This document shows, piece after piece, positions 4,780 through 26,498 of a stretch of 32,000 bases of DNA. A program made the position numbers and the translations under genes. The DNA lies in NCBI RefSeq assembly GCF_000092465.1, contig NC_014205.1, positions 690,001-722,000 of the forward strand, written 5' to 3'. The notes beneath the pieces were generated by a model. The model did not search any database. It had not been told where the DNA came from and saw only the letters and a list, made by a program, of their open reading frames with translations. The stretch comes from Staphylothermus hellenicus DSM 12710. Lineage in GTDB: Archaea; Thermoproteota; Thermoprotei_A; Sulfolobales; Desulfurococcaceae. How positions within the stretch are numbered: the stretch's first letter is position 1; each line of letters begins with the position of its first letter.

Positions 4780-5829
4780 ATGAGTTCAGGGGATGCAAGA
4801 GAACTGATCTTCAAATATTTAGAATTCATTGGAATCAAAGGATATGAAGCAAAAGCATATCTAACACTATTAAAGTATGGAGAAGAAACAGCTCCCAAAC
4901 TAGCTACACGTGCAGGAATACCTTTGCCTAGAATATACGATGTTCTCGAGACACTTTCTAGGAAAGGGCTTGTTGAAGTAAAAGCTGGTAGGCCACGAAT
5001 ATACAGAGCTCTTCCCCCAAGTTTAGCTCTAACAAGATATGTTAAATCATATATTGAAGAAGTACTTGAAATGAATAAGCGGATAATGAATGAGTTAGAG
5101 AAAATATATGGTAGTAGGGAGAGCCATGAACCATATATTTGGTTATCTCATAGTTTAGAGGCTAGTATTGAGAGAACACGTGAATGGATCAAGAAAATGA
5201 GAGTTGATGGTTATGCGTCGCTGAATAATAATTTGGTCAAAGAACTAGCTTCTACGCTAGGCAGGAAGTTGAAAAATAATAAAGAGATAACGTTTAGCTT
5301 AACATTATTAGAAAAGCCGAAAAAGAATACTTATGAAGAACTCGAAAAAATAGATAATCTAATGATCCTGCTTCAACCAACTGGGTTTATAAACATGTAT
5401 GAACAGGATCTCAGCCATGCAGCATTATTTGGCGACAACTACACTCTTTTTACTACCGAGAACGAGTTATTAATAATATTAAATGATACATACTATTATG
5501 GTTATTGGCGGAGCGCGGAAATATTGAAACCCCTGAACATTAAGAGAGGAGACACATATAAAACAATGCATCAATGGTTAGCGGTTTCAATAATAAAGGA
5601 CGCGCTCAGCCAAGGCTATACAGTAGAACTATATGTTACAGGCTATCGGGCTAGAGATAGGAAACCAGTAGAGATCAAGGGATACGCTAAAAGCGTTTAT
5701 AAGAGCGCAGATGATAGGACAAGAACAATATATATAGAAACACCTAGAGGGGAAAAAGTCTCAGTAGGAGGTATAGGTGCTAGCAGGGAAGATGTTGAGG
5801 CCAGGTTTATGGAGATAAAAATTACCTAG
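4780..5829 (+). CDS. trmB: TrmB-family sugar-responsive transcriptional regulator
   Basis: N-terminal winged-helix region typical of TrmB (GIKGYEAKAYLTLLKYGEETAPKLATRAGIPLPRIYDVLETLSRKGLVEV...GRPRIY). About 350 aa with a C-terminal sugar-binding-size domain. Context is identical to the Thermococcales trehalose/maltose regulon. Confidence 0.85.
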   Translation: MSSGDARELIFKYLEFIGIKGYEAKAYLTLLKYGEETAPKLATRAGIPLPRIYDVLETLSRKGLVEVKAGRPRIYRALPPSLALTRYVKSYIEEVLEMNKRIMNELEKIYGSRESHEPYIWLSHSLEASIERTREWIKKMRVDGYASLNNNLVKELASTLGRKLKNNKEITFSLTLLEKPKKNTYEELEKIDNLMILLQPTGFINMYEQDLSHAALFGDNYTLFTTENELLIILNDTYYYGYWRSAEILKPLNIKRGDTYKTMHQWLAVSIIKDALSQGYTVELYVTGYRARDRKPVEIKGYAKSVYKSADDRTRTIYIETPRGEKVSVGGIGASREDVEARFMEIKIT

Positions 5830-12785: not shown

Positions 12786-13106
12786 TTAATGGGAGTATAA
12801 AAGTTCAATAATGGTATCAGTATCTTTTACATATATTACTCTTGTTCTCCTATAATTATTTCTGGCTGTGTTTAAGGCGTTCTCTTTCCCAACTAGTTCA
12901 ATAAAATTCTTTGTCGGCTTATGTTTGCTACTACTTATTTTGAACGGTTTCTTTAATAAGAATCCTTTACCAATTACTGCTACTGGGTAATCGTTTTTCC
13001 TATAGTAATGCGGACTATACGTTATCTTAGGATATTTTCCTATAATATTTTCCCATCCAACCTTAAAAATATCTATTATTTCATCAACTATTATTCCCGT
13101 TTGTCC
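12786..13106 (-). CDS. 3' segment of an interrupted hypothetical gene (106 codons, open, no start codon)
   Basis: My hand translation of the minus strand gives GQTGIIVDEIIDIFKVGWENIIGKYPKITYSPHYYRKNDYPVAVIGKGFLLKKPFKISSSKHKPTKNFIELVGKENALNTARNNYRRTRVIYVKDTDTIIELLYSH*. It has no in-frame ATG, GTG or TTG, which explains its absence from the ORF track. It is in the same frame as ORF 13278..13790 (both low coordinates are divisible by 3). Confidence 0.6.
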   Translation of the reverse strand, partial: GQTGIIVDEIIDIFKVGWENIIGKYPKITYSPHYYRKNDYPVAVIGKGFLLKKPFKISSSKHKPTKNFIELVGKENALNTARNNYRRTRVIYVKDTDTIIELLYSH

Positions 13107-13292
13107 CTACCGTATCATTTTACATATTTATGTACTTGTTTGTATCTGCGGTAGGGACTTCCGCCTCTCCCATAGTCTTTTTCTCGATGACTATGGGGTC
13201 ATGGGCGGCTGTCGAGGCCAACGGCACGGGCCTCCCATCTACAGTGAACCTCTAGGGGTCTCGGAGCATTGCTCCCATCAACCCCTAGAGAC
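13103..13292. other. GC-rich structured insert separating the two halves of the gene (candidate intron, structured RNA or miniature mobile element)
   Basis: Four perfect stem-loops. (1) 13103-13112 pairs with 13149-13158. (2) 13161-13165 pairs with 13204-13208, enclosing 13169-13177 paired with 13189-13197. (3) 13214-13219 pairs with 13229-13234. (4) 13250-13258 pairs with 13282-13290, enclosing 13263-13267 paired with 13271-13275. G+C is about 59% over 13149-13292 by hand count, in an AT-rich background. Five stop codons fall in the host gene frame. Confidence 0.6.
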
Positions 13293-13790
13293 ATAAACCA
13301 ATACAAGAAAATACAATCTGAAATACTTAAAGTTTTCTGCCCCAACAATGAATATGCCTGCTTTACCATTAACTAGTGAATCCCTAAAGGCTTTCTTTAT
13401 TTCACGCAATCCTCTTCTCTTAGACCAGAATTTTTCCGGGTATTCGGCGAGTCCAGCCATAAACAATAAAAGATCGTTTTCCTCGAGCTTCTTGCCTTTT
13501 TTATGTGGGAGTCTTCCCTTCGGCATATAGTATCCAGTATAAATTCCTAGATCTAGGCGGGGATCATTGTGTATGGGGTTATTATCGTGTTCAACTGGAT
13601 AAAACTTTGAAAACTTTTCACCAGTGCATTGATCAATTATTTTCCCAGGCTGTAGATGGAGTGGTATTTCTCTAAGCCTATATGGATCTTCAGGTATTGG
13701 CAACAATGTATAACATTTCCTATATAACGGTGAGTAATAGCCTCCGTTACTTGTCTCCAGGAATGCTCTCAGAATTAATAGTTTAGCCAT
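13278..13790 (-). CDS. 5' segment of the interrupted hypothetical gene
   Basis: ORF-track protein MAKLLILRAFLETSNGGYYSPLYRK...GIFIVGAE... Its last ~20 codons (NFKYFRLYFLVLVYVSRG*) run into the insert and stop at TGA 13278-13280. I recognise no family signature with confidence. Confidence 0.55.
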   Translation of the reverse strand: MAKLLILRAFLETSNGGYYSPLYRKCYTLLPIPEDPYRLREIPLHLQPGKIIDQCTGEKFSKFYPVEHDNNPIHNDPRLDLGIYTGYYMPKGRLPHKKGKKLEENDLLLFMAGLAEYPEKFWSKRRGLREIKKAFRDSLVNGKAGIFIVGAENFKYFRLYFLVLVYVSRG

Positions 13791-25432: not shown

Positions 25433-25522
25433 CTTTCTATGTTGCTACATGCATGGATAGAGAATGCTGTTTTCACACCCCTCAAAATCTTTCAATTCTT
25501 TTTGTGTTGTTACTTTGGTTCG
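25433..25522 (-). CRISPR. Mini CRISPR array A (2 repeats, 1 spacer), minus-strand orientation
   Basis: Repeat at 25498-25522 reads GTAACAACACAAAAAGAATTGAAAG as reverse complement. A degenerate distal repeat lies at 25433-25457. The 40-nt spacer is 25458-25497. The leader-proximal repeat abuts a leader copy homologous to that of array B. Confidence 0.7.
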
Positions 25523-25671
25523 AATACGTTGTTACATTTTTGTTTTTCTTCGAAGGACTATATATTATTTTCTCTATTTGATCCCTTGGTTGATCTTGTT
25601 CGACTGTTTTTCTATAGGTTTGATAGTATCGCTGGGGTGTTGATTGGTTTGTATAATGTGAAGTGTTCGAT
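25523..25671 (-). promoter_or_regulatory. CRISPR leader A (inverted homologue of leader B)
   Basis: The reverse complement of 25523-25671 aligns with 26055-26212. The first ~43 nt next to the repeat are near-identical apart from one A indel, and similarity is roughly three-quarters further out by eye. A TATA-like ACTATATATTA (25566-25576) lies about 49 nt from the first repeat. Confidence 0.6.
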
Positions 25672-26054: not shown

Positions 26055-26212
26055 GTCGAACACTTATCATTATACAAACCCGTCGGGGGGTCAGTGATAC
26101 TATTGAATCTATAGTTGGCTGTTCGAACACGAACAGCGCAGATTAATCATAGAAAAGCATATATATCTGGTTCGAAGAAAAACAAAAAATGTAACAACGT
26201 ATTCGAACCAAA
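26055..26212 (+). promoter_or_regulatory. CRISPR leader B
   Basis: A/C-rich sequence directly upstream of the first repeat of array B. A TATA-like GCATATATATC (26157-26167) lies about 50 nt from the first repeat. Hairpins: GCTGTTCG-AACA-CGAACAGC (about 26123-26142) and GGTTCGAA...TTCGAACC (26169-26209). Confidence 0.65.
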
Positions 26213-26498
26213 GTAACAACACAAAAAGAATTGAAGGCTAACGTTTTCCTTATTGATCACTAAGAATATGGTATGTATGTAACAACACAAAAAGAATTGA
26301 AGGTTGAAAATCAGCATACGCTCTGGTCCTCTCGGTGCAAAAGTAACAACACAAAAAGAATTGAAGGACATTTAGCGATGTTGAATATGTATATATATGT
26401 GATGGCACGTAACAACACAAAAAGAATTGAAGGCCAATATCCTTTTGTAACAGTTCATTAAGATATTGCCTCAGTAGCAATCTAGAAAGAATTGAAAG
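26213..26498 (+). CRISPR. CRISPR array B (5 repeats, 4 spacers), plus-strand orientation
   Basis: The 25-nt repeat GTAACAACACAAAAAGAATTGAAGG occurs at 26213, 26279, 26343 and 26409. A degenerate terminal repeat GTAGCAATCTAGAAAGAATTGAAAG lies at 26474-26498. Spacers are 41, 39, 41 and 40 nt. The repeat 3' end ATTGAAGG/ATTGAAAG matches the 8-nt crRNA 5'-handle type known from archaeal Cas6-processed repeats, which sets the orientation. Confidence 0.9.

Follow-up and report, generated by a model that had tools for sequence, protein, structure and literature searches.

We analysed 32,000 nucleotides (nt) of contig NC_014205.1 from the archaeon Staphylothermus hellenicus DSM 12710 (assembly GCF_000092465.1, positions 690,001 to 722,000 of the forward strand), hereafter the window, whose own numbering is used throughout. 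On the minus strand of the window lies a gene of the Nmad3 family that is interrupted by an insert of 243 nt, in our reading a miniature, non-autonomous derivative of an IS607-family transposon. The 5' part of the gene belongs to an open reading frame (ORF) of 170 amino acids (aa) at 13278..13790. The frame of this ORF remains open from 13106 to 12789, in a run that offers no ATG, GTG or TTG; five in-frame stops separate this run from the first part. A first-pass annotation had described these features and proposed that both segments belong to one protein, split by a GC-rich structured block; translation and a scan for start codons bear out the description, and Pfam and homology searches agree with the proposal.

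The N-terminal half matches Pfam family PF18754 (Nmad3) with E=1.5e-6 over profile positions 6-116 of 247, scoring 28.5 against a gathering threshold of 27. The joined sequence has 34 homologues, nearly all of ~245-280 aa and spanning both halves. It aligns end to end with 253-aa homologues, keeps the family-invariant and near-invariant residues in both halves, and covers the full-length Nmad3 domain (~247 positions). Its closest homologues, P0001 and P0002, are encoded on contigs (L001 and L002) that share the gene order of the window, Na/H exchanger - Nmad3 - PALP/threonine-synthase-like, and because of this shared order we regard them as true orthologues of the interrupted gene. No intact allele of exactly this protein is on record in a protein search with the joined sequence. 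The lone short homologue among the 34, P0003 (170 aa, "hypothetical protein [Staphylothermus hellenicus]"), is 100% identical to the window ORF; its C-terminal 20 residues (AENFKYFRLYFLVLVYVSRG; 13278-13337 in the window) are the translated left end of the transposon, an annotation artefact.

Protein and DNA alignments with the orthologues place the insert at 13098..13340, minus strand, as one clean block of 243 nt, or 81 codons, that is a gap in L001 and L002. The comparison with orthologues suggested in the first-pass annotation did find uninterrupted relatives, but the boundaries proposed there (186 nt, 13106-13291) were wrong. The junction had also been called ambiguous, which holds only for ±1 nt within the G runs 13343-13340 and 13098-13096. 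Across the site the orthologues read ...AGIFIVG|GIIVDEIID..., and in-silico removal of the 243 nt yields a 762-nt coding sequence for a 253-aa protein, identical in length to both orthologues; this replaces the ~277-aa product joined at ...LVLVY|GQTGII... that had been suggested. The last 20 residues of the 170-aa ORF and the "GQT" of the second segment, previously counted as gene, are both insert sequence. The 5' part of the gene occupies 13341..13790 (codons 1-150, ending ...AGIFIVG), on the evidence of the ORF, the Pfam match and colinearity with P0001 and P0002; the 3' part occupies 12786..13097 (codons 151-253 plus the stop) and is likewise colinear with the orthologues.

The junctions in the window read GTTGG-GG-CAG...AAAC-GG-GAATA, and the empty site in L001/L002 reads GT(T/G)GGGGGAATA (an empty allele of the window site would read GTTGGGGGAATA), which makes the element [CAG...AAAC] plus one GG crossover dinucleotide. 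GG is present at the left junction, at the right junction and at the target. Alignment with the empty sites shows a shared G run only and no target-site duplication, and there are no terminal inverted repeats, the termini GGCAGAAAAC... and ...GGGACAAACGG not being inverted copies. In all 7 elements examined the left flank has (G)GG or AGG as its last letters, and the right end AAAC-GG is found in every copy but the degenerate L010 (AAAC-TG). An invariant GG target, preferably (G)GG, scarless excision and the lack of both target-site duplications and terminal inverted repeats are hallmarks of IS607 (PMC6188088; 10.1101/2023.11.20.567912), whose ends typically carry short direct repeats (PMC6188088). 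Because GG stands at both junctions without target-site duplication or terminal inverted repeats, we assign the insert to the IS607 mode of insertion, and the polymorphism relative to the orthologues amounts to a single insertion event. A classical miniature inverted-repeat transposable element was rejected, since it would have terminal inverted repeats and a target-site duplication; the insert resembles one only in being miniature and non-autonomous. In the empty sites of L001/L002 (~5440-5465), UAUUC and GAAUA could pair into a hairpin (UAUUC-loop-GAAUA) whose loop would contain the target GG run.

The source of the insert emerged from its relatives. The RNA core, translated in two open frames as a pseudo-protein, was used as the probe in a multi-seed scan of the genome collection. 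Among the matches listed was Thermogladius sp. KZ2Tp1 (L003), where the similarity spans ~190 nt at the 3' end of a 404-aa ORF and 10 nt downstream (pairwise alignment A3). According to Pfam, this ORF has the Cas12f1-like TNB domain of TnpB, and the ORF preceding it combines Resolvase with HTH_17/MerR, as in an IS607-type serine transposase (TnpA-S). The same gene pair, with the same 3' sequence, occurs in Desulfurococcus amylolyticus ("ISDka1 orfB", L004), in Vulcanisaeta souniana (L005) and in a Desulfurococcaceae metagenome-assembled genome (MAG; L007), and the Resolvase+HTH_17/MerR and Cas12f1-like_TNB domains are found in these relatives. Two Thermococcales-type metagenome contigs (L008 and L009) also match, with a TnpB 95% identical to that of Pyrococcus kukulkanii, as does the Pyrococcus abyssi plasmid pGE2 (L015; blastn, 73% identity over 184 nt, E=7e-20), under the 3' end of an annotated TnpB coding sequence. 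The right end (RE) of the insert and the adjoining RNA region align to L003, L004, L005, L007, L008, L009 and L015. In all full-length copies and in the window homology ends at ...GGGA(C/G)AAAC-GG, and the flanks beyond are unrelated. Full-length relatives measure ~1.9-2.0 kb, and the identity of the window element to every sampled relative is only 63-68% across alignment A4. In the window itself, tblastn recovers a C-terminal TnpB remnant at 13260-13113 only. On pGE2 (L015 1310-1883), tnpA survives as an unannotated remnant truncated at its 5' end and no left end can be recognised, so this copy is itself probably immobile.

The opposite end of the insert is homologous to the left ends (LEs) of such elements. 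The LE at 13292..13342, minus strand (GG-CAGAAAACTTTAAGTATTTCAGATTGTATTTTCTTGTATTGGTTTATG), is AT-rich, ~49 nt long, and contains two TTGTAT direct repeats. Its alignment (A5) with the full-length TnpA-S+TnpB elements L009 and L005 and with the mini-element L010 runs up to the tnpA start codon, preserved as a remnant ATG at 13294-13292, where the LE ends; the window, L005 and L009 agree in every letter of GG-CAGAAAACTTTA. The LE also carries a motif resembling a transcription factor B recognition element and TATA box (BRE/TATA) at about 13335-13321, a putative promoter by its letters. The usual archaeal promoter-to-start spacing is about 26 nt, and this motif would start transcripts near 13299, a few nt upstream of the first hairpin of the RNA region. 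The insert is an LE joined directly to the RNA-encoding RE, with tnpA deleted from its first codon and tnpB gone except for its last ~190 nt. We class it as non-autonomous because no tnpA or tnpB ORF is contained in the 243 nt. Across the clade there are two types of LE: GG-CAGAAAACTTTA, in the window (13342-13329), Vulcanisaeta (L005:1816) and Thermococcales (L009:6300), and GG-CTGTTT(T)C, in Thermogladius (L003:~1130), Desulfurococcus (L004:~1790) and the Desulfurococcaceae MAG (L007:~1795). The right ends are the same for both.

In transposons of this kind the 3' end of tnpB together with the RE encodes the ωRNA (or reRNA), while its guide comes from the flank (PMC10055086; 10.1101/2023.11.20.567912; 10.1101/2023.03.06.531077). 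The corresponding scaffold homologue, former tnpB 3' end plus RE, lies at 13097..13291 on the minus strand (~195 nt; terminus GGGACAAAC-GG) and forms four hairpins, H1 (about 13291-13247), H2 (13234-13214), H3 (13208-13161) and H4 (13158-13103). That the block is GC-rich and structured, as first described, is clear: GC content is 0.53 in the 190-nt core and about 0.59-0.60 in its richest stretches of 100 nt, compared with 0.37 in the whole window, and 13320..13080 folds at -90 kcal/mol (z = -5.55), a value that none of 200 dinucleotide shuffles attains. An RNAalifold consensus was computed from alignment A4, which holds the window copy and seven relatives. It contains 51 pairs in the same four hairpins as in the window, 23 of them with compensatory double changes. 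On this consensus 90.7% of cells form pairs vs 35-48% when partners are slid by 1-3 columns, and 0/500 column shuffles reach the observed values. The covariance model built from the same alignment (R1) matches the window copy over its full length (13097-13301; 199 bits, E=2e-52), compared with 204-218 bits for full-length elements and 144 bits for the decayed L010. Two 1-nt insertions set the window copy apart from all seven relatives; they break the TnpB frame and leave the helices intact.

We conclude that reading the structured part of the insert as a TnpB ωRNA scaffold is essentially right, as homology and covariation indicate. By analogy with known ωRNA architecture, the would-be guide portion is 13097..~13078, minus strand (GGAATAATAGTTGATGAAAT), the first ~16-20 nt of the Nmad3 3' part. 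No Rfam family for this ωRNA was matched, ARAGORN found no tRNA, and the exact protein of a 41-aa ORF inside the element is not on record. K-turn and H/ACA readings of the hairpins were considered and dropped; their motifs misfit by eye, and ωRNA homology explains the fold.

A second protein-less element was found on L010 (Ga0190313_1000054, 510-743), a Thermococcales-like metagenome contig. It is made up of an LE, ~20 nt from the start of tnpA and the ωRNA region; it is intergenic, its deletion breakpoints differ from those of the window element, and its 3' end has decayed (terminus ...GGAAAAAAC-TG). Because this element is independent, protein-less LE+ωRNA derivatives arise repeatedly. An extra weak covariance-model match lies on the same contig (3928-4023, minus, 19 bits). 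Three features of the window element recur in Thermococcales elements, one of which resides on pGE2: the LE, hairpin 2 in its G:C variant, and the stem of hairpin 4 (CCCTACCGC...GCGGTAGGG). Comparison of these sequences suggests cross-phylum transfer between Euryarchaeota and Crenarchaeota among vent hyperthermophiles.

In the host gene, both Nmad3 halves are undecayed and retain their invariant residues, which points to a recent insertion. In a relative-rate check the 3' half has 6 window-specific changes vs 4 for L001, that is, no excess of lineage-specific changes, in numbers too small for significance. Undecayed coding sequence, together with a 1-in-3 chance that an insert has a length divisible by 3, accounts for the in-phase continuation of the frame. 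The 3' half cannot be translated, being preceded by five in-frame stops and lacking a start codon of its own, and the gene is for this reason most likely inactivated.

Taken as a whole, we are confident that the 243 bp of the insert represent an IS607-family element reduced by deletion to LE and ωRNA/RE and no longer autonomous, which recently entered an Nmad3-family gene and has most likely inactivated it. The first-pass annotation had named three possibilities, a spliced mRNA intron like that of cbf5, a miniature non-autonomous mobile element, and a structured RNA nested in the gene. The second and third were essentially right and describe one and the same IS607-family derivative, the nested RNA being its ωRNA scaffold. 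The first fails, as the junction has no bulge-helix-bulge (BHB), Rfam gives no match and the ends are homologous to a transposon.

Mechanistically, a serine recombinase would have exchanged strands across the GG dinucleotide at a (G)GG site inside the Nmad3 gene, and such an insertion would leave neither target duplication nor inverted repeats. Transcription from the LE promoter may then run straight into the ωRNA scaffold, and the neighbouring Nmad3 3' sequence would serve as its guide. Should cognate TnpA-S and TnpB be present elsewhere in the cell, they could excise the element without a scar or move it in trans, and TnpB-ωRNA might cut empty Nmad3 sites, which would favour retention of the element.

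Several observations weigh against this account. We infer transcription, ωRNA processing and gene inactivation from sequence. In the 32-kb window tblastn found no TnpA-S or TnpB gene, and in two protein searches no Staphylothermus TnpB was present in the best 120 of about 900-1000 homologues, which is not proof of absence. Since the window holds no TnpA-S or TnpB and these best-120 lists no Staphylothermus TnpB, any protein partner that would mobilise the element or use its ωRNA is hypothetical. The full-length elements sampled reach at most about 65-70% identity to the core, so the parent is not among them. Finally, evidence for other genomic copies is indirect and comes entirely from Logan contig breakpoints. 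Contigs entering from the Nmad3 5' side (L011 and L012, two S. hellenicus runs) stop at 13221, and those from the thrC side (L013 and L014, two runs) stop at 13179, with three SRA runs overall. Because contigs of independent read sets break at these two positions, an exactly repeated segment of ~101 nt (13150-13250) is likely to exist elsewhere in the genome, and with it one or more additional copies, miniature or complete; this assumes 31-mer assembly graphs. No further copy was found in the window by repeat search, blastn or covariance model. Viral contigs gave no match in three pseudo-protein scans, the phage collection gave no blastn match, and a pattern scan of metagenomes found no sibling mini-element with the same LE...RE ends.

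The same observations bear on the alternative that survives best, namely that the mini-IS607 is an inert fossil, stranded in a genome that has no cognate TnpA-S or TnpB, with its ωRNA unused and a dead Nmad3 gene as the sole consequence. The missing partner genes in the window, the lack of a Staphylothermus TnpB in the two best-120 lists, the lack of a close parent among sampled elements and the lack of a metagenomic sibling are all what a fossil would predict. Against it, the ωRNA fold is intact, with a covariance score close to those of full-length elements and well above that of the decayed L010, and its helices were kept despite the two frame-breaking insertions. The insertion is also young, and the contig breaks at 13221 and 13179 suggest an identical ~101-nt segment elsewhere. 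We consider an inert fossil possible, though on the unlikely side.

At the opposite extreme, the element might be a working "solo guide" module, in which the tnpA promoter is fused to an intact ωRNA, the Nmad3 3' half serves as guide and TnpB acting in trans cuts uninterrupted Nmad3 alleles. We regard this as doubtful. If true, it would constitute a natural RNA-guided gene drive or allele-exclusion device, drawing its TnpB from another copy or from an incoming plasmid, for example of the Thermococcales pGE2 type. Scarless excision by TnpA-S would make the Nmad3 knock-out reversible, and the LE and H4 features common to Thermococcales would imply a recent transfer from Euryarchaeota to Crenarchaeota at hydrothermal vents.

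We then weighed a true archaeal pre-mRNA intron, cut by the tRNA-splicing endonuclease at a BHB as in crenarchaeal cbf5, which would leave the gene functional. The insert length is divisible by 3, both exon halves are intact and conserved, and, as with the cbf5 intron, a protein gene is interrupted in frame in a member of the Desulfurococcales; Staphylothermus belongs to an order with cbf5 introns (PMC2738675). Pairing is possible between the exon flanks (UAUUC/GAAUA), and close to the junction one can draw a UUGU/ACAA helix of 4 bp that has an ACG bulge of 3 nt. A canonical BHB was taken to have a central helix of 4 bp and two bulges of 3 nt, with cleavage after the second nucleotide of each bulge, and none of the three frame-preserving colinear cleavage pairs fits this geometry (0/3). 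The sole BHB-like drawing gives a join 2 nt short, a frameshift, and a permissive scan returned only chance AU-rich candidates, none at 13341/13097. The Rfam and BHB checks proposed at the outset thus came back empty, with no Rfam match at gathering threshold or at E<=10 and no BHB in register. Homology of both ends to IS607-type LE and RE explains the whole block. The insert is also found in one lineage only, unlike the cbf5 intron, and at 243 nt is far longer than the cbf5 introns. Splicing of this kind is very improbable.

Equally improbable is a host-domesticated structured RNA gene inside a gene, or an assembly artefact. The fold is stable and the promoter-like BRE/TATA motif, as read from its letters, lies about 26 nt upstream of the first hairpin, as a domesticated RNA gene might have it; against this, the insert occupies this site in one genome lineage and is missing from the orthologues L001/L002. 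The same junctions recur in P0003, a protein derived from the NCBI genome, and, approached from either side, in Logan assemblies made independently, which contradicts an artefact. Last, an IStron-like element, a transposon that is also a self-splicing group I ribozyme and so phenotypically silent, can be practically dismissed: IS607-family IStrons of Clostridia interrupt genes likewise (10.1101/2023.11.20.567912), belong to the same superfamily and share the intron-like look, but between 12700 and 13900 Rfam detects no group I/II intron even with a cutoff of E<=10, the last nucleotide of the 5' exon is G rather than U, the LE (49 nt) and ωRNA region (195 nt) fill the 243 nt and leave no room for a ribozyme core, and full-length relatives have no intron module, so that the host gene would not be expected to be repaired at the RNA level. 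Group I/II introns in general were rejected as well, with no Rfam match, an insert start that is not GUGYG and ends that do not follow their rules.

We compared the element with known systems. It resembles the IS607 family (H. pylori IS607, Sulfolobus ISC1926, Desulfurococcus ISDka1) in its homologous LE and RE, GG termini and (G)GG target, in the lack of target-site duplications and terminal inverted repeats, in the short direct repeats of its LE and in an RE that overlaps the ωRNA; unlike full-length members, it lacks both genes and measures 243 bp vs ~1.9-2.0 kb. Protein-less, ωRNA-encoding derivatives called PATEs have been described for IS200/IS605 (Meers et al., PMC10055086). The window element likewise pairs LE and RE with a guide-RNA scaffold and would need TnpA and TnpB in trans. 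However, PATEs belong to the IS605 branch with its Y1 transposase, whereas the window element belongs to the serine-recombinase IS607 branch, has no subterminal palindromes directing cleavage of single-stranded DNA, resides in an archaeal hyperthermophile and has the tnpA promoter of its LE fused directly to the ωRNA. Like the ωRNAs or reRNAs of other TnpBs (ISDra2, Geobacillus, Sulfolobus SisTnpB1), its scaffold is ~200 nt long, comprises the tnpB 3' end and RE, ends at the transposon boundary and has a multi-helix fold conserved with covariation. Unlike them, it stands apart from any tnpB ORF, is known from sequence alone and has no Rfam match.

Elsewhere in the window, 26210-26498 of the minus strand holds a small CRISPR array (Rfam CRISPR-DR27) of 4-5 repeats, and the other strand has a single repeat at 25489-25513. 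Together with the 34 nt beside it, the repeat makes up an inverted repeat of 57 nt (96%; 25491-25547 / 26179-26235), as though one end of the array had been copied in inverse orientation.

The insertion event itself is of an ordinary kind. It nevertheless removes a candidate from the rare introns of archaeal protein genes, and illustrates how an IS607-type insertion can mimic an intron: neither a target-site duplication nor terminal inverted repeats betray it, the RNA it carries is GC-rich and structured, and one insertion in three will by chance keep the frame. In the database, the "hypothetical protein" of 170 aa from S. hellenicus represents a truncated Nmad3 and would be better labelled "Nmad3 family, interrupted". 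For the large Thermoprotei/Thermococcales clade of TnpB, whose ωRNA has no Rfam family, we provide a covariation-supported structure and a covariance model; thermostable TnpB-ωRNA pairs are also of practical interest for genome editing. The element offers a clean archaeal case, on the IS607 branch, of a protein-less LE + ωRNA element, and bears on how ωRNAs spread apart from tnpB.

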